DNA of 64,000 nucleotides from Bythopirellula sp. (GCA_965216565.1 OZ244170.1:352001-416000); one strand, 5' to 3'; positions 40,219 through 53,312 are shown, counted from the stretch's first letter. The notes: generated by a model from the sequence alone, not told the origin. A program made the numbers and translations.

Positions 40219-41502
40219 TCACGAAGCGATGTCAACGGCTCGCAAGTTCTTGACGAGTACTAAGGTCATCACTAGAAAACTCGCGATGGCACCGAAAAGC
40301 ATGGACCATGCCGCTCCGGCGACGCCAAACTCGCTGATCAGGGGATAAACAGTAAGTGAGATGGCGATAAAGGTGGCTACTTCGCCCCAAAAATTTGCCT
40401 CGGGTAATTGCAGGGCATTCAAGCCATTGGAACTAGTTAGCGCCAGGCTTGTGACCAAGGTATTAACGCTCAGGATGACTAGGACGCTGTTAGCCCAACT
40501 AAATTCGGGGCCAAAGATTTTCTCCAACAACCAGCTCCCGCCGAGAACAAAGATTACGCAGACGGTACCTAGAACGACCGAATAGATGGCTGCTGAACGA
40601 AATAGTTCTACGTGTAAGCCTTTCTTCCCATACTTGTTAAAGGCCCGGATGGCCCGCGGCTGGAGCAGATTGTTAAGGCCCCGTACGAATACCCAAGAGA
40701 ATCCTGCGAGAGTAACACATACTGCCAACACGCCAGCAGCAGAGCGGTCGATCAATCCGGCAACAATCCAGGGCATAGCCACCTGGCAACCATCTCCTAA
40801 GAGTCTGCCGTAGACTAACCATCGCGAGTATGTCCAATGTTGCTTCCAATGGGCTTGGATGGCGCGGCGATCGAACGTGAATTCAACCTTCGGCTTTCCG
40901 ACAAACCAGCTCAAGGCGCCAAAAGCACAAGCAACACTAATAGCTAGAAAACTGTATGGAATCGTTAACTTTTCAAGCCAAGCCATTGCGAGTAGCAATC
41001 CAACTTGAAGCAAGAACACCAGACCATCAACCACTAGGGCAGTTCGAAGTCTAAAATGGGCAAAACAAACTGTGCGCAAGAATTCCCGAAGCATGTAAGG
41101 GACAATCGCAACGCACAGAGCTAGAACGCTGAATGCCATTGTGCTCGCCCCCTCCGTGGCAAACAGGTAGCCACTGTAGAGACATGCAGCGAGGACCGTC
41201 AGCAGGGCCAGGATCAATTGGTGAACCAAAGTGCTGCCGAGTAGGCTAGCCAGCGCGGCATCTTGACGTTGCGCGGAAAACACCATGTACGGTACCGAGA
41301 GGCCCCTTGCTTGAATCATCGACGCGAACAGCACGAGCGAAAGGCACAGAGAATAGATTCCAACCTCTTCCGGAGTGCATACCCGCGCTAGGATTAGCAT
41401 CGTGAGGAAAGTTGTGGTGCTGGCGATGCCCTGGTCGAAAAGGGCCAGGACTCCCTGTCGGGCACCCTTGGAATCTACGACTTTTCTTACCTTTTGAACC
41501 AT
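40219..41502 (-). CDS. Wzx/MOP-family polysaccharide flippase-like protein
   Basis: About 12 hydrophobic segments; DQGIAS..ILARV..PEEVGIYS N-terminus and FGVAGAAW C-terminus. Confidence 0.8.
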   Translation of the reverse strand: MVQKVRKVVDSKGARQGVLALFDQGIASTTTFLTMLILARVCTPEEVGIYSLCLSLVLFASMIQARGLSVPYMVFSAQRQDAALASLLGSTLVHQLILALLTVLAACLYSGYLFATEGASTMAFSVLALCVAIVPYMLREFLRTVCFAHFRLRTALVVDGLVFLLQVGLLLAMAWLEKLTIPYSFLAISVACAFGALSWFVGKPKVEFTFDRRAIQAHWKQHWTYSRWLVYGRLLGDGCQVAMPWIVAGLIDRSAAGVLAVCVTLAGFSWVFVRGLNNLLQPRAIRAFNKYGKKGLHVELFRSAAIYSVVLGTVCVIFVLGGSWLLEKIFGPEFSWANSVLVILSVNTLVTSLALTSSNGLNALQLPEANFWGEVATFIAISLTVYPLISEFGVAGAAWSMLFGAIASFLVMTLVLVKNLRAVDIAS

Positions 41503-41940
41503 CGTGTTCTGTTCTCAGAGAGTTCGCTGGCTGGGGGGCGAATTCTCCGCGTGCTTCATGTCTGCACGTAGTGCTGCGCTATCTGCCCGGGAATAGCACC
41601 ACTCGAGAGGGGATCGGCTGACCACGATCTTACAACCAATGGAAGGCAGTGAGTCGTCTGCGCCTGATTGGCAATTGGGATTGGATTTCGGTTGTCCTCG
41701 ACACTGGTTCCGGTAATTGCCGCGAATCCCTTAATTCACAGTCTCAAAGTCGATTTTCCTTGACAATAAGAAAATGCCGGTTCATTATACACAAGTTAAG
41801 AGGATTGCACGGTTTATGCAGTCTGAAATGAATTGGACGATTCTGAGCCTTCCTGGCTCATAGTCAGCGTTTCAGTGAGTGTCCCCTACAGGACGGGGTG
41901 CTCTCATTCTCATGCCTTTCTTTTTTGGGGAGACTCCACG

Positions 41941-42366
41941 ATGAAGATGATGATGATTTTGCCAGCTTTGGCAATGATGTGCCTCGTGAGCTCGGCTCAA
42001 GCCGACAACGGTGCGATCGACAGTGCTACGCTTAGCGCCATGGGCCTAAGCAACGTTCAAGTGATGTCCGATGTAGAAGCTCAAGACGTACGCGGCATGG
42101 GCTATGCCCCACCTCGTAGAAGCTTGGCACTCGCATTTGGCGTCTCGTTCGCCAGCATCAATGCAGGTCCTGCCAGTGCCGGTACTTTGGACGGTTTCTT
42201 GTCCTATGGCAACCACGTTGCTAAGGGTCAGCATGAATCCGTAGCCCAGATCTCGGAAACCAAGACCAAAACTAAGACGATTCTTGGCGTACCTGCGTAC
42301 TCCATCACAAAGACTCGTACCTTGACAATTGGCGCTGGTGGTAGCTCCAGCTCGTTTGCTTTTTAA
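41941..42366 (+). CDS. Small Sec-exported protein with double-glycine-like pro-leader (paralog A; candidate fibre subunit)
   Basis: GGGGAG ahead of ATG 41941; signal peptide ending AQA-DNG; leader MSDVEAQDVRGMG; co-linear with the gene at 42941. Confidence 0.85.
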   Translation: MKMMMILPALAMMCLVSSAQADNGAIDSATLSAMGLSNVQVMSDVEAQDVRGMGYAPPRRSLALAFGVSFASINAGPASAGTLDGFLSYGNHVAKGQHESVAQISETKTKTKTILGVPAYSITKTRTLTIGAGGSSSSFAF

Positions 42367-42412
42367 GCATGAAAGTGTGAGTTCCCAGGCATTTTCGATG
42401 CCTGACAATTTT

Positions 42413-42453
42413 AAGCGTCTCGACGTTTCCTGGTACGTCGAGACGCTTTTTTT
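42413..42453 (+). terminator. Intrinsic terminator of paralog A
   Basis: AAGCGTCTCGACGT...ACGTCGAGACGCTT followed by a T tract. Confidence 0.85.
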
Positions 42454-42680
42454 GTCTGTCGATCTAATCTGCCTCTGCTAGTTTAAAGCGAATCCCTAGG
42501 GGCTCTGAAGTCTGCTTCTCCATCAGAAGGTTTCCTTTATCCAGGGGATATTCGTTTTCTTTAGGGGCTGTGGCCCCGATTGGTTGAGGATTCGCCTCAA
42601 TCTCATAGCTCGCAAAGCGTCCATTGGCCGAAAAATATCCCCGCAAGATTGGTCTGGCGTGGCCAGTTTTGGTACTGCCT

Positions 42681-42713
42681 GTAACGGTTGTATGGGGAAT
42701 GGTAACGATTGTA
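42681..42713. promoter_or_regulatory. Direct repeat GTAACG(G/A)TTGTA x2, 21 bp apart; putative regulator binding site
   Basis: GTAACGGTTGTA at 42681 and GTAACGATTGTA at 42702, upstream of paralog B. Confidence 0.55.
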
Positions 42714-42940
42714 CGGCCTCTGCGAATTGTTCTTCTCTCGGACCTTGGAACCTAGGCAAATTTCCGAACTCCATTGTTGATGCACTGGGGGTCCCGATTA
42801 GCGTGAGATAGAGAGGGCAGCGACGGGCAACTCAACTTTACCCGGGAAGTTGACCAACCCGTCAAAAACCTCCAACTACTTTTCGGACTACTTAAAAGTC
42901 CACCATCTCACCTCTGTATTCTTACCAGGAGTACCACACG

Positions 42941-43408
42941 ATGACGAAGCTTTTTGTAACTTTGCCTGCTCTGGCTTTGGTTGTTGCCCTTTCCAGTAGC
43001 GCTGTTGCCGACAACGGCATTAACGATGCAACTCTTGCTGACATGGGCCTAGCCGGTGTTGAGCTGATGAACGATGCCGAAGCTATGGAAATCCGTGGCT
43101 TAGGCTACAACGGTGGCCATCAAATGCCACAACCCTCCGGACACGAGAAGCCATGGTCGCTGGCTTTCGGTGTTTCTTACGCTGGAGTTGAAGGTGGCGA
43201 CAGCCACAGTGGCGCTGGTGCCGGAACGCTTGATGGCTTTATTGCCGAAGGCAAGTTCATGGCCTCTGGCGAGCACTACTCGGAAGCTGGCTTGACCAAG
43301 GTTGAGTCGCACGAGCTGCAAGTGAAGGGTCAACCTGCGACTTTGGAAATCAAGACCAAGTCGATCAAGGTCTTCGCTGGTGGTTTCGCAACCGCTTCGA
43401 GCCTCTAA
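42941..43408 (+). CDS. Small Sec-exported protein with double-glycine-like pro-leader (paralog B; candidate fibre subunit)
   Basis: AGGAG ahead of the ATG; signal peptide ending AVA-DNG; leader MNDAEAMEIRGLG; shares LAFGVS, AGTLDGF and KT.....AGG with paralog A. Confidence 0.88.
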   Translation: MTKLFVTLPALALVVALSSSAVADNGINDATLADMGLAGVELMNDAEAMEIRGLGYNGGHQMPQPSGHEKPWSLAFGVSYAGVEGGDSHSGAGAGTLDGFIAEGKFMASGEHYSEAGLTKVESHELQVKGQPATLEIKTKSIKVFAGGFATASSL

Positions 43409-43465
43409 GGAATAGATCACAGGCAAGTGCCTGATAAATGGTGATCAGGATGATCGCAAAAAAAT

Positions 43466-43503
43466 AAAAGCGTCCTGTCGCAATGCGGCAGGACGCTTTT
43501 TTT
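43466..43503. terminator. Intrinsic terminator of paralog B, possibly bidirectional
   Basis: AAAAGCGTCCTGTCGCA-A-TGCGGCAGGACGCTTTTTTT. Confidence 0.85.
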
Positions 43504-43517
43504 CGTGGACCCCAGAT

Positions 43518-43566
43518 AAAAAACCCACGGAAGGCCAGAGTTTGGCGGGGGAGGCCTCCCGTGGGT
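43518..43566 (-). terminator. Probable terminator of the minus-strand barrel gene
   Basis: ACCCACGGAAGGCC...GGCCTCCCGTGGGT stem with an A run at 43518-43523 (U tract on the minus strand). Confidence 0.6.
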
Positions 43567-43575
43567 GCGCTAGGT

Positions 43576-45147
43576 TCACCAAGTGAAGCCCGTGGCAACA
43601 GACACACCATACAGGTCGACAATCAGTCCAGGGGCATCTGCCGTTGTACTCACAACGTAGTCGTTCGTATCTCCCCCATCTGTGGTTTGTACTCCGGCAA
43701 AAGAGCCAGAAGCTGCTCCGCCGCTCGAGGCATCCCAATACTGGTATTCGAAGGCAGTCCGGAAGAATGCCTTGGCTGGCAGACAGCGTAGAGCAAAGTC
43801 CCACTGAATACCCGCCTGGAATTCGCCAATAAACAGATCGTCATTGACGCTGGTTCGGGCACCATCGATCGAACCTGCCGATCCACCTGGAACTGATCCA
43901 TCGGTAGGAATGACCGTTACCCCAGCACTTGTTTGGACTTCGCTGTGGTTACAGCCCCACAAAACAGACGAGCGGGCACTGTAGAACCAATGGGCACAAG
44001 AGCAAGGAAACAGTGGTTTGCGACCGTTCAGCCCGAACGTAAGTCCTGTACCATGGGCGCTACGATTTGCTCGGGTGGTTCCTTCGAGGATACCGTCCGT
44101 GGTATCGGTGCGGACGAACGAGCGACCGTAGATCGATTCGTGATGTTCAATCAAAGCATAACGTGCACCGAACGACAGTTGGTTTTTGCAGCCATGCAGG
44201 CAGAAGTTTCGGGTGACTTCCAGGTCAGCATAGTAGGCTTCAAATATGCTGTTTGCATTATAATCGTTGTCGGGATAGAGTTCCCATGGCTGGAGCGAAT
44301 CGAAATCATTCTCTCCTGCTCGCAAGTGGAAATAGCGACCAACGATGCCCCATTTGCAACCTTGAACACCGAGCCAAATTCGTGGAGCGACATAAAAGTC
44401 GTTTAGGTCGGCGTGATCCCAATAGGGACCGAATTGCTGGAGTCCAGTCCGCGTGCCATTTACGAGTTGTTCGAATTCATACGTGACACGTCTGCCATTA
44501 ATATCAGGCGACAAGAAGACTGCCTCAGTTCCTGCAACGATGGTGCAAGGCCGTTTGCAGCAGCGTTGACATGCACAGCCGCCTCCACAACAAGAGTCGC
44601 AAAAACCCTGCGCACAAGCATCGCAGCAACCGGTGGCTCCGCAGTAAAGCGGGTCCTGCCAGGTCGGTTCAGCTCCGCTATCATCCGGGGTTGGACCCAC
44701 GCTAGAGATAGCAGGTTCTTCTGCAGGTAGATCGTAGATCTCCTCGTTGGCTTGGGCACGGATGACTCGCGACGTCCCGATGTTGCCCACCGCAGAAATA
44801 TCATTTCGATAGGCGGATGCCGCTGGTCGGGGAGCGACCGGCGTAGAATGGGTCACACTTGTAACCAGAGGTCGCTGCTGTGGTTTTTCATCCGTCGCAA
44901 CAAAGTTGCCTTTGTCGTCCTGCTCCGTGAGCCAACGGACTGTCGTTGTTTGGGTATCTCCGCTGTTGCGAGTCGACTTGGATTCGAGGGATGCTTGCAT
45001 CCGTTCGAGCTGTGCCGCTTTTTCAGCTAGTTCTGCGGCCAGTTGCGATAGGTCGCCAGTCGATTGACCAGCTGCCCACAAGACGTTGCACCAAGAGGTG
45101 CCGACCATTGCCAAACAAATGGCAGTGATACTAAGTAGCTTCTTCAT
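43576..45147 (-). CDS. Planctomycete-type outer-membrane beta-barrel protein (Lpg1974/BBP7-like) with a Cys-rich pre-barrel segment
   Basis: Signal peptide MKKLLS..; short coiled coil; Cys cluster; strands APRIWLG, GIVGRYF, SFGARYA, GEFQAGIQW, RTAFEYQYW; ends ATGFTW. Confidence 0.8.
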   Translation of the reverse strand: MKKLLSITAICLAMVGTSWCNVLWAAGQSTGDLSQLAAELAEKAAQLERMQASLESKSTRNSGDTQTTTVRWLTEQDDKGNFVATDEKPQQRPLVTSVTHSTPVAPRPAASAYRNDISAVGNIGTSRVIRAQANEEIYDLPAEEPAISSVGPTPDDSGAEPTWQDPLYCGATGCCDACAQGFCDSCCGGGCACQRCCKRPCTIVAGTEAVFLSPDINGRRVTYEFEQLVNGTRTGLQQFGPYWDHADLNDFYVAPRIWLGVQGCKWGIVGRYFHLRAGENDFDSLQPWELYPDNDYNANSIFEAYYADLEVTRNFCLHGCKNQLSFGARYALIEHHESIYGRSFVRTDTTDGILEGTTRANRSAHGTGLTFGLNGRKPLFPCSCAHWFYSARSSVLWGCNHSEVQTSAGVTVIPTDGSVPGGSAGSIDGARTSVNDDLFIGEFQAGIQWDFALRCLPAKAFFRTAFEYQYWDASSGGAASGSFAGVQTTDGGDTNDYVVSTTADAPGLIVDLYGVSVATGFTW

Positions 45148-45760
45148 CTTAAGATTCCCCCCTGCCGCTGTACCGACAACGCTCGCGAATGCTAAGCGGT
45201 GTACCAACGACAAATTGCCAAAAAGTTCTTAACTGGGTCGAAAAGTTTGAGTCCCTGCTTCTTGCCCGAGATGCCTCAAAGAGATTCGCGAGCAAAAGGC
45301 AAACTTAGTACTCCGCATTCGTTGATCCATAAAAGGAATGCGACTGGCACTAGTCGGGTAACCGCCAATGGTGGACTAATGCAGAGAACAGGATCGACAG
45401 TCAAAACCGATTCGATCGAAGAATTTAGTACCCACTGATACAACCGGTAGAATCGTTAAACTCAACCATGTGTCTCAACGTGCGGAAATAGCGGTATTCG
45501 CGGGGTGGCAGCGCATTCGTGAGTCTTCAGGTGATAGCTCCGATAGCACTTTCTTAGACCGATCTTCCAGTATCCAGGCAGTGATTCTCAAGAGTATGCC
45601 TTAGTTAAGACGATGAATCGCTACAACCGGCATAACACGCAAAGTTTGCCAAATCGTGTCCCGCGGCGGTTGCTGGCCACATTTCGTACTGAATTATCAA
45701 CTAGCGCTGTGCGAAGCACGTTCCAACATGGCCAATACAACAGAGACCAATCGAACGAGC

Positions 45761-47830
45761 ATGAAATTGCAAGTGAGCTCAATAATGAAGCTCGCGTTGA
45801 CACTTTCAATTACGCTCGTGAGTTTCCAAAAGACCGAAGCGGTCGAGAAAAACTCACAAAGCTGGTTTCGCCCATTTGCCTGGCAAGAAAGTCCTGAACC
45901 CGGTCAGGGGTCCGGTATCGAAGCACCTCCGGTAGCCAGGAATCTGAACATTTTTAAATGGTCGAACGATGTCCAGCCGCAAGCTCAGCAGCCATCATCG
46001 GATACAACGCGGACTCAAGGCACACGTCTGCCGACGGTGCAGCAGCCCAGCACAAAACTATTGGCCGGTCTTCCATCTGGTCCGAGCATCCCTGCTGATT
46101 TAGATGCTGAATCGCCAGTGATTGCCACAGATAGCCTGCAACAACCTGGCTCCGTAGCGGTTACTGCTTCGCAGCAGTTCGCCACCATTGCTGAGCCTCA
46201 AGGTTCAGCGTCGAGTGTGTCGGATAACGTGCGTCAAACGGCCGCTTATGGGCAGCAGCCGGTGAATTGGCCTGCAGAGAATGAGCAATCCAATCAGGCA
46301 GCAAATTCATCCGGAAACAACAATCCATTTTCATGGACAAACTCAGGACCTGCAGTGCCTCAAAGTGTGGCACCTCCACAAACGGCTCCCATCATGGAGC
46401 GTAGCCGCCAGCCTTGGGAGTGGTCCAACAATCCTACGGTGCGAGAGAAGCCACAAGAGATTATGCCACCCGATGAACCCTCATTGGGTTCAGCATTGCA
46501 TAATGCCCTAAGCTGGTCTGACCAACCGAATCCAACACCACCAACGGCTGCCGAAAGTGGGCGGCCTCCGGAAGATGCAACCGACGCAGAATTGGTTGAA
46601 TGGGAAAAGCAAAAATATCCTTGGATCCGCCCCTTTTACTGGGCAAATAGCAACCCAGAACTTGGGGTAGAAAACGAAATCGCACCGCGTGACCCCACTC
46701 AAGTAGAAGGTTATGTACCGCTCCTGGCAAAACCGTTCAATTGGGACAATCGCCAGGTGAGCCAGCAGCCTAGGCCGCTCGCAGAAACGCCAAATGGGTT
46801 AACCAGCTATCCTACAACACAGGCTGCCGCATACTTTCAAGACGAGGAATCGCTACCGAATCCACTTGAAGAGCTCAAAATCCCTAGAGACGACGAGGCA
46901 GATCGTAATCAGACAGCGGGCACTGCTAAGGACAATGAGCTCGATGGCGAAAAGAAGGGCACGCTGGCCGAAGCAGAATCGCTTGGTGAAGCACCAGAAG
47001 ATAACAGCTTACAATTCCTCAGGGCCGATACGGTGCTGCTGAAGCCTGGAGACTTTCAGTTCGACTACGGCTTCGCCTATACCAAGTTTGATCGAACAAC
47101 GCCTGTCATTGTGGCTACTGATGCGGGTAACGTGGTCGAACATGCAGAGTTGCGACTGCGTGAACTTCGGGTTCCATTCGAAATTCGCTATGGTCTAGCC
47201 AGACGCGTCCAACTATTCCTGAACGTGCCCTTTGGATGGGTCAATTCAGAATTCAGCTTCCCCGGGTTCGACGAGTTCGAGAACGATGGCGGCATCGGCG
47301 ACATAGTCTTTGGTGGATCGTTTTTGCTAAGAGAAAACGATCCTTGCAACAAGCCTGACGCAATTCTTACGTTCGCTGCAGTGGCACCGACCGGGAATGA
47401 TCCTTTTCCCGCCGTAGGCGCATCGACTGCTGCTCCTTCGCTAGGCAATGGTTTTTGGTCGCTTGCTTCCAATTTGTTGTTCATTAAGAACTACGATCCG
47501 GTCGTGCTGTTCTACGGAGCGGGTACTCGCCAGAACTTCGATACAGAGTTCAACGGACAAGAGTTCCGTGCGGGTGGAGAATACAACTATCAATTTGGCG
47601 TTGGCTTCGGCGTTAACAGCAAAGTCACGTTTAGCACGCGCTTCAACGGTGCCTATGTAACGGAGTCGAGACTCGACGGTCAACGGATCCAAGGTTCAAT
47701 ACAGGAGCCGATGACCCTGGGTCTTGCCATGACCATTGCTAAGAACAAGAAGCTTATCGAGCCGTTCGTCGATTTTGGGCTCACCGACGATGCATCTGAC
47801 GCAAGATTTGGCATTACCTGGACGCGATAG
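45761..47830 (+). CDS. FapF-like ('transporter'/MetA-pathway family) outer-membrane beta-barrel with a long Pro/Gln-rich N-terminal region
   Basis: RYGL..R, GIGDI, APTGNDPF, GNGFWS, YDPVVLF and FGLTDDASD resemble FapF-family motifs; immediately upstream of a C39 peptidase; start uncertain (45761 or 45785). Confidence 0.8.
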   Translation: MKLQVSSIMKLALTLSITLVSFQKTEAVEKNSQSWFRPFAWQESPEPGQGSGIEAPPVARNLNIFKWSNDVQPQAQQPSSDTTRTQGTRLPTVQQPSTKLLAGLPSGPSIPADLDAESPVIATDSLQQPGSVAVTASQQFATIAEPQGSASSVSDNVRQTAAYGQQPVNWPAENEQSNQAANSSGNNNPFSWTNSGPAVPQSVAPPQTAPIMERSRQPWEWSNNPTVREKPQEIMPPDEPSLGSALHNALSWSDQPNPTPPTAAESGRPPEDATDAELVEWEKQKYPWIRPFYWANSNPELGVENEIAPRDPTQVEGYVPLLAKPFNWDNRQVSQQPRPLAETPNGLTSYPTTQAAAYFQDEESLPNPLEELKIPRDDEADRNQTAGTAKDNELDGEKKGTLAEAESLGEAPEDNSLQFLRADTVLLKPGDFQFDYGFAYTKFDRTTPVIVATDAGNVVEHAELRLRELRVPFEIRYGLARRVQLFLNVPFGWVNSEFSFPGFDEFENDGGIGDIVFGGSFLLRENDPCNKPDAILTFAAVAPTGNDPFPAVGASTAAPSLGNGFWSLASNLLFIKNYDPVVLFYGAGTRQNFDTEFNGQEFRAGGEYNYQFGVGFGVNSKVTFSTRFNGAYVTESRLDGQRIQGSIQEPMTLGLAMTIAKNKKLIEPFVDFGLTDDASDARFGITWTR

Positions 47831-47867
47831 GCTTTCCGAGGCTCCGCTGCTTTGCGGAGGGTGAAAC

Positions 47868-48638
47868 ATGAACGTCAAAATATCTAGTTGCTGTTTACTC
47901 GTGGTCATAGCATTGGGTGCGGCTGCGCCCTGTCACACCTATGCGGAGGGCGATCGTCAGGAGCCCCCTAAAAAGAGCCAGCAAAAGAAACGCGAGCGTC
48001 CGGGCCCACCAGTTCGAGACCGCGAGCATACTTTTGCTAAACGTGTGCGAAACTACCGGGAGCTCAAACGCCAGAACATTGTTATGCAGCAGCGAGATTA
48101 CTCTTGCGGTGCGGCAGCATTGGCCACGATTGCCCACTACTATTGGCGGGACAACGTCGATGAGGAGTTCTTTCTGTCTATACTAGATCACATTCTAACC
48201 CTAGAAGAAGCTAAAGAGCGGGTCGAAAATGGCTTGGCGATGAGCGACCTGCGCCGTGCTGCCGTCGAGGCAGGCTACAAGGCTATTGTGGGTAAGGTTT
48301 CTTTTCAAAAACTCACCGAGTCGAAAGTGCCATTAATCGTGGGCATCACTGTCGACGACTACGATCACTTTGTCGTGTATCGCGGTACTGACGGCATCTA
48401 TGTTTATTTGGCTGATCCAATTCGCGGGAATCTTCGCGTTCGCAGCCATGTGTTCATCAAACAGTGGCAAAAGAATGCAATCTTGGCGATTGCTAAGCCG
48501 GGTGCCAAAGTGAAGGAATATTCCCGTCTGAGCATCACAGGCGACGAGCTATTCCTGGGTCGGCTCAATGATCAGGTTGTGCGGACGGCAGGCGAACGAC
48601 CGATCACGCGTCCCATCTATCGCCCCATCGTACGCTGA
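47868..48638 (+). CDS. Stand-alone exported C39 peptidase (FapD-like)
   Basis: Signal peptide; MQQRDYSCGAAALAT (Gln, Cys), YDHFVV (His), YLADP (Asp); no fused ABC transporter. Confidence 0.92.
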   Translation: MNVKISSCCLLVVIALGAAAPCHTYAEGDRQEPPKKSQQKKRERPGPPVRDREHTFAKRVRNYRELKRQNIVMQQRDYSCGAAALATIAHYYWRDNVDEEFFLSILDHILTLEEAKERVENGLAMSDLRRAAVEAGYKAIVGKVSFQKLTESKVPLIVGITVDDYDHFVVYRGTDGIYVYLADPIRGNLRVRSHVFIKQWQKNAILAIAKPGAKVKEYSRLSITGDELFLGRLNDQVVRTAGERPITRPIYRPIVR

Positions 48639-48655
48639 TCGGCGTGGCGTTAGGG

Positions 48656-48868
48656 CTATTCTGATTCGTCTGAGAGTGCTTCCTGGATGATCGACGCGAT
48701 GTCGAACTTGCCACTATTGATAGAATCGAAGACCGATTCGTGCATCGTCTGCGCGTCGTAGTCTTCCAGCTTTGCCAAGATCTTTCTGATCGCTACTGGG
48801 GAGTGGCCTTGCTCGCGCAACCATTCCATCAGTTCTTCATGATTCGGGTCTGGAGTAGACATGGGCAT
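48656..48868 (-). CDS. Small acidic hypothetical protein
   Basis: 70-aa ORF directly after tsaB on the same strand. Confidence 0.65.
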   Translation of the reverse strand: MPMSTPDPNHEELMEWLREQGHSPVAIRKILAKLEDYDAQTMHESVFDSINSGKFDIASIIQEALSDESE

Positions 48869-48892
48869 TCATCCGTCAGAGTAAAGTTTGGA

Positions 48893-49600
48893 TTAGGCAA
48901 TCGCATCTGCTTTTTCTTCAGCTGCACTTTTGCGAAAGTAATTGGGCACGAGTTGCATGGGATCGATACCGCCTTGGCTGAGGAAAATCTTTGCTCCAAG
49001 TTTACCGATCGCTCTGGCAGTGGGCGACCATAGTTCGGACTCGGCAATTGTGACGCCACTGGGAATACGATCGGCAAGAGTATTCAGCGGCGGCCCTGTG
49101 ACTAGGTCACCGGGTTGAAGCAAGTCGAGCCACTCGTCGATTTTCAACAAAAGCGTATCTGGCGGAGTGACCATCTCAGACTCGCTTAGGAAAGTATAAC
49201 TGGCAGCAAACAGCTCTTGCCGTTGTGCGTCTAGTATTGCCCACACGCGTTGACTCTTTTTGTGCTCACCCGAGTCCGCAATCTTCATTGCGAGTGCGGA
49301 GAGGCTATGTACACCTACCAATTTCGCAGCGCTGGAATAGGCCAGAGTTTTTGCGGTGATGACACCAATCCTCAATCCAGTGAATGAACCTGGACCCGTG
49401 GCAACGCAGAGAAGATCTACGTTTTCGATGTCCCAGCTGCATTTCTTCAGTAGCGAGGAAATCTGCGGGACGAGGGAACACGCAGTTCGTTCATTTTTCG
49501 GTAACGAGACTTCTTGAACAAGCTCGCAGCAATCTTGCCGGACTGTCAGCGTAGCCAGGCTTCCCCGACGGTCGATGGATTCAATAGCAAGTATCCGCAT
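48893..49600 (-). CDS. tsaB: tRNA threonylcarbamoyladenosine biosynthesis protein TsaB
   Basis: MRILAIES, GPGSFTGLRIG..AKTLA, LDAQRQE, P.YFRKSAAEE. Confidence 0.93.
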   Translation of the reverse strand: MRILAIESIDRRGSLATLTVRQDCCELVQEVSLPKNERTACSLVPQISSLLKKCSWDIENVDLLCVATGPGSFTGLRIGVITAKTLAYSSAAKLVGVHSLSALAMKIADSGEHKKSQRVWAILDAQRQELFAASYTFLSESEMVTPPDTLLLKIDEWLDLLQPGDLVTGPPLNTLADRIPSGVTIAESELWSPTARAIGKLGAKIFLSQGGIDPMQLVPNYFRKSAAEEKADAIA

Positions 49601-50885: not shown

Positions 50886-53312
50886 GTGGAACAACGACGA
50901 GTCATCCTATTTTTAATGCTCTCGTTCACGGTATTGGTGCTCAATGGCCTGCTGTTCCCGCCTGAAGAAGTTGCGGACAACAAACTCCCTCCTAAGGGAA
51001 AGCAAGAAGCAGCGGCAGTCGCTGAGGGCGGTGCGGAAGCGGACGCCAGCGGCGAACATTTCGACCAAGGGGCCGATGCTCCAGGTGCTCTGGATGGCCA
51101 GGATCCCAACGAGCAGCCCGTTGAGCCAGTTGCTGAGGTCCCGCTCGAATTTGCGACCCTAGGATCTATCGCCGAAGACTCGTCTTATCGGATGCTGGTA
51201 ACACTGACCAACAAAGGGGCGGGTGTCCAACGTGTGGAACTTGCCAACCGTCGGTACCGAGATCTGCAGGATCGAGGGGGTTACCTGGGGCACTTGCAAC
51301 TAGTAAAGGCCGCGGAGGGCGGACTCCTAGTTCAGGTGGTCGGCGAGGGAACTCCCGCTGCGAATGCAGGAATCAAAAAGGGCGACCGACTGCTCTCTGC
51401 CAAAGCGGGCAAGACTTCAGCTGAGCTCAACTCGCCCAAGGATTTCACGAATCTTTTGGAAGAGCTCGAACCGGGGCGAGAGATCATCCTCAGAGTTGCT
51501 CGAGAAGATGGTCAAGATGAAGAAATCGAATTGGAATTGGTGCGTCGTCCGCTGGAAGTCATTCGTCCCGAGGCTGAGAACTTCCTGATGCGTACCGGGT
51601 CGATTCCTGCTGATTTGGAATCGCCTCCCTCTCTACTTTTTTCCCTCGAGCAACTGGGATCGCAGAAACTCACTGCCGAGATCGAAAAGGCGAAAGGTCG
51701 TGCCCAACAAGCGATTGAAGAACAAACGGGCGAACAAGTTTCCGTTCCCAAAGAACTTGCAGGGGTCGCGCTGAGCGAGTCAAACTGGGAAATCGTTGAG
51801 CAGGACGAAACAAGTGTCACTTTCCGCCAACGAGTGCCGCAGCATAACCTTGAAGTCATCAAGCGCTATCGGATTGCCACGATTGCGAACGAAGAACAGA
51901 GCGAAGCAGATTTTCCTGCCTACCATCTCACACTTGACATCGAAATCCGTAACGGTGGCGACAAGCCAATCAACAATCTTGCCTACCGTCTTGATGGCCC
52001 GAACGGACTTCCTCTGGAAGGTTGGTGGTATGCTCATAAAGTGGGACGTGAATGGACGGTAGGTCTCCGCGACATCTTTGCCCGACATGTAGGTGAGGAT
52101 GACCCCGTTCAGTTTGGGCCTCAGGCAGTGATCGATGGCGACTTCGAGCCCATGATGGGTACTCCTCTCGCATACATCGGCATCGATGCACAGTACTTCT
52201 CGGCAATGCTAATTCCCGAGAAACCATCGCTCGACACAACCTGGATTGATCAGGCACTAGCCACACTCTTGAGCCCTCAACCCAAAGCTCGCGGTACTGA
52301 AGGTCGCTACGCGAATGTTTCGTTCCGTTTGATAAGCAAAGAATTGACTCTCGAGCCGGGCGAGACACTCAAGCATTCCTATAAGCTCTTTGCCGGTCCC
52401 AAACGTCCTGAGCTACTTAAGAAGTATCAGGTTGTCGACGATCCTGCCTATTCGCTTGGCGACTTGGAGTATTACGGATGGTTCTCCAGCGTTTCTACAG
52501 GCATGCTCGCTATCCTGCATTTCTTCTATGGGATTGTTGGCAACTATGGCATAGCCATTATCATGCTCACGGTGCTGGTGCGTCTCTGCCTTTTTCCCAT
52601 CAGCCGCAAGCAAGCCAAGAGCATGGCTGCGATGCAAGCGCTGCGTCCTGAAATGGACAAGTTGAAGGAAAAGTACAAGAACGACATGCAGAAGCAGTCG
52701 TCTGAAATGCAGGCGCTGTACCGCAAGCACAACATCAATCCGCTGGGCGGCTGCCTGCCGATGTTTATCCAACTGCCCATAATGCTGGGGCTTTATAGGG
52801 CACTCGCGGTAGATCTGGAATTGCGACAAGCTCCGTTGATTAGCGAAAGCGTGCGATGGTGCTCCAATTTGGGTGCTCCCGATATGCTATTCGACTGGTC
52901 CGGGTTCATGCCCGAATTTATTACTAGTGGCCAAGGGTTTTTAGGATTAGGCCCTTACTTCAATATTCTGCCGATCGTCACCATCTTCCTGTTTATTTTG
53001 CAGCAAAAGCTCTTTATGCCTGAAGCAGCCAACGAGCAGGCTGCTTTGCAACAAAAGATCATGCAATACATGATGATTTTCATGGGCCTGATGTTCTTCA
53101 AGGTGGCATCGGGGTTGTGCATTTACTTTATTGCTTCCAGTATTTGGGGCATTGCAGAAAGAAAGCTCATTCCGCCACCAAAGGTGGCTGAAGGCAGTGG
53201 AAGCTCGAACGACAATGGCAATGGATTCAAGTCGAGTTCAGCTCGGTCATCCTCCGACAAGAAATCGAACTCCAAGAACAAAGGCAAGCGGAAGCCAAAG
53301 AAGAAGCGTTAA
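50886..53312 (+). CDS. yidC: Membrane protein insertase YidC with an inserted PDZ domain
   Basis: N-terminal helix; LTNKGA; LFAGPK; YYGW; GNYGIAII..T..VR; NPLGGCLP; PDZ motif GTPAANAGIKKGDRLL. Confidence 0.95.
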   Translation: MEQRRVILFLMLSFTVLVLNGLLFPPEEVADNKLPPKGKQEAAAVAEGGAEADASGEHFDQGADAPGALDGQDPNEQPVEPVAEVPLEFATLGSIAEDSSYRMLVTLTNKGAGVQRVELANRRYRDLQDRGGYLGHLQLVKAAEGGLLVQVVGEGTPAANAGIKKGDRLLSAKAGKTSAELNSPKDFTNLLEELEPGREIILRVAREDGQDEEIELELVRRPLEVIRPEAENFLMRTGSIPADLESPPSLLFSLEQLGSQKLTAEIEKAKGRAQQAIEEQTGEQVSVPKELAGVALSESNWEIVEQDETSVTFRQRVPQHNLEVIKRYRIATIANEEQSEADFPAYHLTLDIEIRNGGDKPINNLAYRLDGPNGLPLEGWWYAHKVGREWTVGLRDIFARHVGEDDPVQFGPQAVIDGDFEPMMGTPLAYIGIDAQYFSAMLIPEKPSLDTTWIDQALATLLSPQPKARGTEGRYANVSFRLISKELTLEPGETLKHSYKLFAGPKRPELLKKYQVVDDPAYSLGDLEYYGWFSSVSTGMLAILHFFYGIVGNYGIAIIMLTVLVRLCLFPISRKQAKSMAAMQALRPEMDKLKEKYKNDMQKQSSEMQALYRKHNINPLGGCLPMFIQLPIMLGLYRALAVDLELRQAPLISESVRWCSNLGAPDMLFDWSGFMPEFITSGQGFLGLGPYFNILPIVTIFLFILQQKLFMPEAANEQAALQQKIMQYMMIFMGLMFFKVASGLCIYFIASSIWGIAERKLIPPPKVAEGSGSSNDNGNGFKSSSARSSSDKKSNSKNKGKRKPKKKR

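Follow-up and report, generated by a model that had tools for sequence, protein, structure and literature searches.

Among described secretion systems, the closest counterpart of the locus considered here is the Fap system of Pseudomonas (fapABCDEF). In the parts of the study by Rouse et al. (2017, PMC5557850) available to us, FapD is located in the periplasm and has C39 peptidase activity, on which secretion of FapC depends and whose target is unclear, the Fap proteins are said to lack canonical C39 sites, FapE is processed at its N-terminus and yielded no peptides from its first ~70 residues, FapF itself was considered a possible FapD target, and FapF is a trimeric barrel that acts as the secretion channel in this only studied case. 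The accessible portion of a 2026 preprint (10.64898/2026.10.01.755530) describes FapD merely as 'involved in precursor processing'. As far as the available text of Dueholm et al. (2013, PMC3792158) goes, Fap had been found in three classes only, namely Beta-, Gamma- and Deltaproteobacteria, and larger families are matched by the models of FapD and FapF. For Fil, a putative pilus system of Acinetobacter, we found reviews and studies of FilF as a candidate for vaccination, and no mechanistic account. In Synechococcus elongatus, small proteins tagged with double-glycine leaders (EbfG1-4, with PteB) serve biofilm formation, according to the available part of Parnasa et al. (2016, PMC4997328). Here we analyze 64,000 nucleotides of DNA from Bythopirellula sp. 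(GCA_965216565.1 OZ244170.1:352001-416000; hereafter the window), in which positions 41941 to 48638 hold five genes of a candidate export module with relatives of FapD and FapF at its core.

Comparative analysis of these genes makes it reasonably probable that they form a four-part export module, in which a C39 peptidase removes the leader of two Sec-exported precursors and a FapF-like barrel then exports the Gly/Ala/Ser-rich mature proteins. The leader-carrying precursors would first be exported by Sec, and the exported peptidase would then recognize the leader and remove it at or next to a conserved Arg-Gly pair, with a predicted cut one residue after the Gly that fits the spacing of the conserved positions. 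The unfolded mature protein would subsequently pass the FapF-like pore and, outside the cell, the mature proteins may build up a polymer or surface layer rich in beta structure, for which a tall second barrel resembling porins of the Planctomycetes-Verrucomicrobia-Chlamydiae (PVC) group could be an anchor, nucleator or co-channel. Homology, motif conservation and linkage are shown by the sequences; that the leader is cut, that the mature proteins leave the cell and what they form there, fibers or amyloid included, we infer. The five genes are:

41941-42366, + strand: small precursor A, 141 amino acids (aa)
42941-43408, + strand: small precursor B, 155 aa
43576-45213 with a likely start at 45150, - strand: second outer-membrane barrel, divergent from the FapF-like gene
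45761-47830, + strand: FapF-like outer-membrane channel, 689 aa from 45761
47868-48638, + strand: stand-alone exported C39 cysteine peptidase, FapD-like, 256 aa

The peptidase gene begins 38 bases downstream of the FapF-like gene on the same strand. Its product matches Pfam Peptidase_C39 (E 3.2e-19), the NCBIfam models of FapD (NF058616, E 2.4e-26) and FilB (NF050078, E 1.5e-20) and, among solved structures, the C39 domains of bacteriocin exporters (6mpz at 3.4e-6 and 4ry2 at 6e-4). An alignment of 54 C39 homologues shows Gln74, Cys80 (codon 48105-48107), His167 and Asp183 to be invariant. The window protein starts with a hydrophobic, signal-like segment and has no ATP-binding cassette (ABC) part, and its homologues likewise are proteins of 190-373 aa without a transporter part. 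In 47 of 62 homologues, 11 or more consecutive uncharged residues precede the catalytic Gln, and in most of the remainder 9-10 do. Given this signal-like hydrophobic N-terminus in most of the homologues, a periplasmic location of the peptidase is predicted. The genome from which the window comes encodes a single FapD-like peptidase.

The FapF-like protein matches the NCBIfam model of FapF (NF058560, E 2.1e-17), with its residues 426-685 covering profile positions 117-414 of 420, and that of FilC (NF050079, E 3.5e-6); moreover, the FapF crystal chains 5o65, 5o67 and 5o68 are matched by sequence at ~6e-16 over residues 429-685, that is, over the whole barrel. No Pfam family matches it at E<=1. 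The part so delimited is:

about 47045-47815, + strand: C-terminal barrel domain of the FapF-like protein, ~260 residues, from the NCBIfam and PDB sequence matches

Upstream of it, a signal peptide is followed by a Pro/Gln-rich region of ~400 aa with six motifs of the PFxW(S/T)N type (window 45761-47000). These motifs are common only to the closest relatives of the window protein (in loci L002, L003 and L009), so that they are rejected as a feature of the family, and the N-terminal extension of the FapF-like homologues as a whole ranges from 3 to 573 residues.

These assignments bear on an earlier note on the same DNA, which had placed here a FapF-like barrel followed directly by an exported C39 peptidase with intact Gln, Cys, His and Asp and no ABC transporter, a second, divergently transcribed barrel, and two small paralogous exported proteins. 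Open reading frame (ORF) listing and translation recover all five genes at or near the coordinates given there. The peptidase is as described, with FapD as a relative and catalytic residues that do not vary among the 54 homologues; the FapF assignment of 45761-47830 is upheld by the NCBIfam and PDB matches; the barrel on the opposite strand (43576-45213) is supported by an AlphaFold2 (AF2) model of a beta-barrel; and the two small proteins are indeed paralogues (41% identity) with signal-peptide-like N-termini. The note had also considered that the FapF-like barrel might group with MetA-pathway channels. This identity is rejected, given that the closest relatives in NCBIfam and among solved structures are FapF and that there is no Pfam match. 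Finally, the note's statement that the cargo differs from FapB and FapC agrees with our searches: neither Pfam nor NCBIfam (the latter even at E<=10) has a family, Fap and Fil included, that the window precursors match, although the FapB and FapC models do match in an Aeromonas operon that we read for comparison. As a whole, the note's reading is supported. What the present analysis adds to that picture is, at the level of sequence, a double-glycine-like leader behind the Sec signal, conservation of this leader rather than of the mature part, and a second barrel that is a fixed component.

In overall organization the locus resembles the Fap secretion core: it has a homologous pore, a homologous stand-alone exported C39 peptidase, adjacency of the two genes and cargo that is predicted to be Sec-dependent. 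Relatives of FapA, FapB, FapC and FapE (NF058559) were not found, however, either by NCBIfam search or by clustering of neighborhood families; the scores lie far under the cut-offs for Fap equivalogs (63 versus 700 bits for FapF and 92 versus 330 bits for FapD); and the locus has an additional, fixed second barrel as well as an explicit conserved cargo leader, the latter being undescribed for Fap. On these grounds the locus is not a Fap operon. The Fil system offers a second parallel, a C39 peptidase with a FapF-related barrel and non-Fap cargo, whereas the window proteins match FilB and FilC less well than FapD and FapF, and no other Fil model is matched by any protein of the locus.

The leader came to light through the small precursors. 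Precursors A and B are related at 41% identity (E 7e-33), and both begin with a signal-peptide-like segment. In alignments, the N-terminus of the cargo consists of a signal peptide ending in Ala-x-Ala, followed by a leader of ~30 residues ending in Arg-Gly. The two window precursors are divided as follows:

Residues 1-21, + strand: signal peptide of precursor A, from the alignment
Residues 22-53 (42004-42099), + strand: leader of precursor A, with the invariant Arg51-Gly52 at 42091-42096
Remaining 88 aa, + strand: mature part of precursor A, Gly/Ala/Ser/Thr-rich, C-terminus GAGGSSSSFAF
Residues 1-23, + strand: signal peptide of precursor B, from the alignment
Residues 24-54 (43010-43102), + strand: leader of precursor B, with the invariant Arg52-Gly53 at 43094-43099
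Remaining 101 aa, + strand: mature part of precursor B, C-terminus VFAGGFATASSL

Among 5.8 billion proteins, 81 relatives of the small precursors were found, all of them unnamed or 'hypothetical' and, wherever labelled, from Planctomycetes. Statistics for the leader were taken from 83 genes of 61 loci, anchored on the Arg-Gly pair with the Gly as position -1:

Position -22: Leu in 82/83
Position -19: Met in 64/83, Leu in 13/83
Position -18: Gly in 83/83
Position -17: Leu in 74/83, Phe in 7/83
Position -10: Ser in 72/83
Position -9: Asp in 78/83
Position -6: Gly or Ala in 83/83
Position -3: Val or Ile in 83/83
Positions -2 and -1: Arg in 83/83 and Gly in 83/83
Position +1: variable, Lys/Met/Thr/Leu/Arg
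Position +2: variable, mostly Gly/Ser/Phe

Beyond position +2 conservation collapses, and such a sharp end after Arg-Gly-x-Gly is what would be expected of a propeptide that is removed. If the residue after the Gly is taken as P1 (the last residue before the cut), P2 is Gly, P4, P12 and P15 are hydrophobic, P8 is acidic and P11 is Ser. Classical double-glycine leaders follow the consensus LSxxELxxIxGG, and by eye the spacing in the planctomycete leader appears similar to it.

A leader profile of 35 positions allowed this signal to be followed beyond the locus. In a six-frame translation of the 5.2-Mb genome of origin, the leader occurs in exactly four genes, two in the window and two orphans; no other ORF among ~8,200 scores better than E 2.3, and neither barrel is matched. 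One orphan, far from barrel and peptidase genes, is a full-length relative of the precursors with a Gly/Lys-rich insert (L013 1465-1971, + strand; G000:C1:3889868-3890326). The other (L014 1366-1770, - strand; G000:C1 ~1751700-1752100) carries an unrelated His/Lys-rich cationic tail of ~55 residues, and from its sequence looks like cargo of an antimicrobial-peptide type.

Searched against 1.84 billion cluster representatives, the same profile gives 1,071 matches at E<=0.001, 154 of them at E<=1e-10. The best 150 of these 1,071 are proteins of 59-261 aa with the leader mostly at residues ~20-59; among the best 147, P1 is Lys in 63, Met in 46 and Gln in 15, P1' is Gly in 101, and the composition is the same as that of the cargo encoded by the 83 genes. 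NCBIfam offers no family for 146 of these 147; the remaining one resembles a chimera that includes a piece of a cytochrome oxidase. Outside the window's own precursor family and one other, relatives match only in the signal-plus-leader part. By all these comparisons the leader is a modular tag, conserved across the order of planctomycetes to which the genome belongs, while the mature part is not.

The parallel with double-glycine exporters thus extends to the peptidase family (6mpz, 4ry2) and to a similar leader layout. The differences are that the planctomycete leader follows a Sec signal and ends in Arg-Gly-x, with K/M/T/L/Q rather than Gly at P1, that the peptidase is a separate, exported protein and no ABC gene is conserved in its vicinity, and that the proposed route out of the cell is an outer-membrane barrel.

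The fourth part of the module, the second barrel, likely starts at Met 45150 and continues with a signal peptide (the ORF itself extends to 45213), a short coiled-coil-like stretch, a long linker, a Cys-rich cluster and a tall C-terminal beta-barrel. An AF2 model of the C-terminal 349 residues, built with 39 homologues, is a confident all-beta barrel with strands of 24-32 residues (predicted local distance difference test score, pLDDT, 89.6; predicted template modelling score, pTM, 0.84):

about 43579-44540, - strand: beta-barrel domain of the second barrel, C-terminal ~320 aa, from the AF2 model

This protein has no sequence relation to the FapF-like barrel (best BLASTP E 2.7), no sequence match among solved structures and no Pfam match at E<=1. 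Its top match in a Foldseek search is a Legionella Dot/Icm-associated porin (E 3e-10), with modest template modelling (TM) scores of 0.46/0.61, followed by FadL/TodX, Pla/OmpT and OpcA. The ESM Atlas clusters nearest to it carry Legionella_OMP (PF05150) or BBP7 (PF07585) at scores of 0.97-0.95 and are mostly planctomycete, and many members of the second-barrel family have a Cys-rich segment directly before the barrel. The likeness to the Legionella_OMP/BBP7 porins of Planctomycetota and Chlamydiota therefore lies in the ESM Atlas neighbors, the Foldseek match to the Legionella porin and the Cys-rich segment before the barrel; the differences lie in the modest TM-scores, the missing Pfam match and the specific linkage of this subfamily to the C39/FapF-like pair. 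We read the protein, from its predicted fold, as a probable specialized member of the PVC porin-like barrels, albeit one with no Pfam match.

The distribution of the module was surveyed in an even sample of the phylum (401 genomes) and in 301 genomes of the same order, where the lists of barrel and leader matches were compared by hand. The order is presumably Pirellulales, given that the DNA of Bremerella cremea is ~80-85% identical to loci of a genus assigned to the order of the window. The FapF-like barrel is present in 2 of the 401 genomes, the genome of origin counted, and in 56 of the 301, in which the small-protein/leader profile finds 53. Barrel and leader occur together in 51 genomes of the order, the barrel alone in 5 (G419, G462, G508, G528 and G668), the leader alone in 2 (G468, with a match at a contig end, and G648, which is 78% complete) and neither in 243. 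A more sensitive ORF search recovers a leader gene in 3 of the 5 barrel-only genomes (L024, L032, L065). The barrel-positive genomes span 14 family labels in a patchy manner, and include 2 of the 7 other genomes of the same genus.

For the gene neighborhoods, 55 loci were extracted, which represent 53 of the 55 barrel-positive genomes besides the genome of origin, and their ORFs were searched iteratively with the four window proteins; G538, which has contig-end fragments only, and G370 (L010, in which tblastn finds all four parts) were left out. The counts, for all loci and for those with at least 5 kb of flanking sequence on each side, are:

C39 gene adjoining the FapF-like gene on the same strand: 55/55 loci; 39/39 well-flanked loci
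Second barrel present: 45/55 loci; 37/39 well-flanked loci
Leader gene present, in 1-5 copies: 46/55 loci; 38/39 well-flanked loci
All four gene types present: 43/55 loci; 37/39 well-flanked loci

The two exceptions among the 39 well-flanked loci are the most divergent ones, L065 and L066. Hence the four gene types are near-obligately linked, and the module has the second barrel as a constant fourth component. Co-occurrence of the small proteins with the C39/barrel pair in other genomes, one of the checks named in the earlier note, is likewise evident from these data, both in the 51 of 301 genomes with barrel and leader and in the 37 of 39 loci with all four parts. Gene order varies between clades (in Bremerella cremea, L007, it is small gene, C39, FapF-like gene, second barrel, unlike in the window), so that the linkage is more than inherited synteny. 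The arrangement recurs across the order and is therefore not due to chance, and a neighborhood artefact is rejected as well, given that the four gene types remain linked through rearrangements. Clustering of all ORFs of at least 70 aa yielded no fifth conserved gene, be it a chaperone, an immunity protein, a regulator or an ABC transporter, the next family being present in 7 loci.

Several variations on the arrangement were observed. The genome of origin holds a second divergent pair at G000:C1:3003564-3007672, with a relative of the second barrel (L009 6565-8235, - strand; 64% identity) and a FapF-like gene (L009 8916-10673, + strand; 63% identity in the barrel); there is no C39 or leader gene within 20 kb, and the neighbors are a PP2C-like gene and, judging from their translations, apparent Mla-type ABC genes. 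Parts of the machinery are duplicated elsewhere: L027 (G678) has two tandem FapF-like/C39 pairs, each with a leader gene, and L046 and L050 have two adjacent C39 genes. Two contigs of a metagenome-assembled genome (MAG) labelled Granulosicoccus (L002 and L006) carry the module in the gene order of the window, tsaB included, with proteins that are 50-87% identical to those of the window; probably both are of planctomycete origin and were mis-binned into this gammaproteobacterial MAG.

The presumed cargo is diverse. The mature parts encoded by the 83 genes measure 36-144 aa (median 84), have Gly (17.5%), Ala (13.7%) and Ser (12.9%) as abundant residues, contain few charged residues and fall into many mutually unrelated types of domain. 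A common feature is an [AGS]GG motif located 4-16 residues from the C-terminus, which is found in 50 of the 83 cargo genes versus 45 of 2,173 background ORFs, and the last residue is aromatic (Phe/Trp/Tyr) in 31 of the 83. Pfam gave no meaningful match for any of 44 cargo proteins, NCBIfam at E<=10 gave a single match that stands out among 39 of them (to CsgA, see below), and the small-protein profile has no sequence match among solved structures. The AF2 model of precursor B shows two short leader helices and four long strands but is weak (pLDDT 63); the best matches in its fold search are long hairpins of unrelated proteins.

One leader-tagged protein of a related genome (L034:7730-8335, + strand; genome G695), encoded beside C39, FapF-like and second-barrel genes, contains five repeats of the xxQGGxxNxNxAxxxxN type with an exact period of 23 residues. 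It matches the NCBIfam CsgA model at E 7.7e-7, with 29 bits versus a cut-off of 160, and has no Pfam match at E<=0.1. Here a channel of the FapF rather than the CsgG type would serve a curlin-like protein, and this match is the sole direct hint of amyloid cargo. With curli (CsgA/CsgB exported via CsgG), the proposed pathway would share two-step secretion of unfolded beta-prone subunits and their assembly at the surface, whereas the channel and the accessory proteins differ and the window cargo has no curlin repeats, as judged by the missing Pfam and NCBIfam matches.

A number of observations weigh against an export module with a C39-cleaved leader and fiber-forming cargo. First, when 39 cargo proteins were compared with the curated double-glycine-leader models of NCBIfam, not one gave a match at a limit of E<=10, and the residue after Arg-Gly is K/M/T/L/Q, not the Gly, Ala or Ser that C39 peptidases usually accept at P1. 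Second, the profile gives no support to a leader in Fap itself: FapE of Aeromonas caviae reads ...ELADGELAHLRGRY after the signal peptide, including an ...LRGR motif ~25 residues on, and looks leader-like by eye, but it scores -0.2 bits, no better than FapB, FapC or FapD, and stays a lead. Third, the surveyed relatives are not independent, so that the counts of co-occurrence exceed the number of separate events behind them; in addition, the genome of origin has the second pair of barrels with neither peptidase nor cargo beside it. Fourth, a resemblance to a known amyloid subunit is seen in just one of the 39 cargo proteins, and this match, to CsgA at 29 bits versus 160, is unsupported by Pfam. 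Fifth, the model of precursor B is of low confidence and finds no fold match at E<=0.001, and in many cargo proteins an alternating strand leads up to a terminal aromatic residue, an arrangement that is also compatible with membrane insertion.

The main rival explanation, which we regard as unlikely, accepts the export route and changes the purpose: the cargo would be microcin-like bacteriocins or antimicrobial peptides and the module a Sec-dependent bacteriocin exporter used in competition. The double-glycine-like layout of the leader, the small Gly/Ala/Ser-rich mature parts (a composition known for class II microcins), the tandem arrays of 1-5 divergent paralogues, the patchy distribution (56 of 301 genomes of the order, 2 of 7 others of the genus), the orphan gene with its His/Lys-rich cationic tail of ~55 residues and the strongly cationic nature of 11 of the 147 best metagenomic leader matches would all be accounted for. 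It assigns no role, however, to the dedicated second barrel or to the C-terminal strand motif shared by the cargo, and is not easily reconciled with a CsgA-like cargo, with a locus that is syntenic with housekeeping genes in two relatives, with the lack of a conserved immunity-like or other fifth gene among the clustered ORFs, or with the failure of any bacteriocin family of Pfam or NCBIfam to match. We favor a role in a fiber or matrix, given what is known of Fap, the beta-prone composition of the cargo, the strand motif common to its C-termini, the presence of a second barrel dedicated to the module and the CsgA-like protein of L034.

If the four long antiparallel strands in the low-confidence model of precursor B are taken at face value, the small proteins might themselves be components of the outer membrane, namely four-strand units that oligomerize into a barrel, or that dock onto or complete the second one, with the FapF-like protein as an insertase or partner and the leader and peptidase controlling assembly. 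We consider this rather unlikely. The Phe/Trp/Tyr terminus that often (31/83) follows a Gly-Gly strand does resemble the C-terminal signals of barrel proteins, a second barrel is nearby in 37 of the 39 well-flanked loci, and the two barrels also occur as a pair on their own in the genome; many cargo C-termini, on the other hand, are Lys, Arg, His, Gln or Pro, neither mature domains as short as 36 aa nor a CsgA-like repeat protein suit a membrane subunit, and in the one case studied FapF functions as a channel for secretion (available part of PMC5557850). That the peptidase processes a barrel and not the small proteins, the conserved N-terminal segment being an uncleaved targeting or anti-aggregation domain read by the pore, is quite improbable: Rouse et al. 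(PMC5557850, in the part available) did consider FapF a possible FapD target and the residue that follows Arg-Gly is unusual for a C39 cleavage site, but the leader profile matches neither barrel, the leader layout is that of the signal class read by C39 domains, and conservation ends as abruptly after Arg-Gly-x-Gly as it would for a removed propeptide.

The surroundings of the locus are those of a housekeeping region. The five genes lie between a Polysacc_synt-type flippase gene (40219-41502, - strand) and tsaB (48893-49600, - strand), as read from the ORF listing and translations, within a wider neighborhood that includes BipA, galactokinase, YidC, MnmE and an M28 peptidase; synteny with the housekeeping neighbors is kept in two relatives. 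A search of 41000-49500 against Rfam gave no match. Two candidate signals flank precursor A:

41760-41788, + strand: promoter-like site 5' of precursor A, TTGACA-17-CATTAT, 10/12, a consensus match only
42413-42448, + strand: strong terminator-like hairpin 47 nucleotides 3' of precursor A, with a 14-bp stem, 8 G-C pairs and a T-run

Promoter-like sites are not enriched across the region (4 found versus 4.8 expected in shuffled sequence). Further downstream, the YidC-type insertase (50886-53312, + strand; 808 aa) has a PDZ_2 match (1e-7) in its N-terminal or periplasmic part, an unusual combination. The operon read for comparison, fapBCDEF, comes from an Aeromonas caviae record (L070, NZ_AP026896.1), in which the NCBIfam FapB and FapC models match. 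This record, in which fapBCDEF is unannotated, is filed as a 'plasmid' of 4.94 Mb and is probably a chromosome.

The earlier note knew of no characterized system of this kind in planctomycetes, and our search of the literature on FapF, periplasmic C39 peptidases and double-glycine homologs (supplements not covered) likewise found no description of the module in this group. The FapD/FapF core is present beyond Proteobacteria, with entirely different cargo, which fits the broader FapD and FapF families described in the available text of Dueholm et al. (PMC3792158). Moreover, the analysis provides a candidate recognition signal for FapD-type C39 peptidases, MGL..MSD..G..VRG-x-G, on short cargo proteins within a four-gene system, which makes the question of what these peptidases recognize testable. 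As a more tentative extension, for which we would claim rather less than even confidence, the Arg-Gly leader might be the signal of the FapD class in general, and the combination of Sec signal, leader, C39 peptidase and FapF-type barrel (with or without a partner barrel) a general two-step pathway that, in Pirellulales, serves more than 1,000 clusters of cargo forming beta-rich (amyloid-like) fibers or a coat. For the biology of these bacteria, the leader marks a large, unannotated family of small secreted proteins in planctomycetes, which could function in surface structure, attachment or competition.

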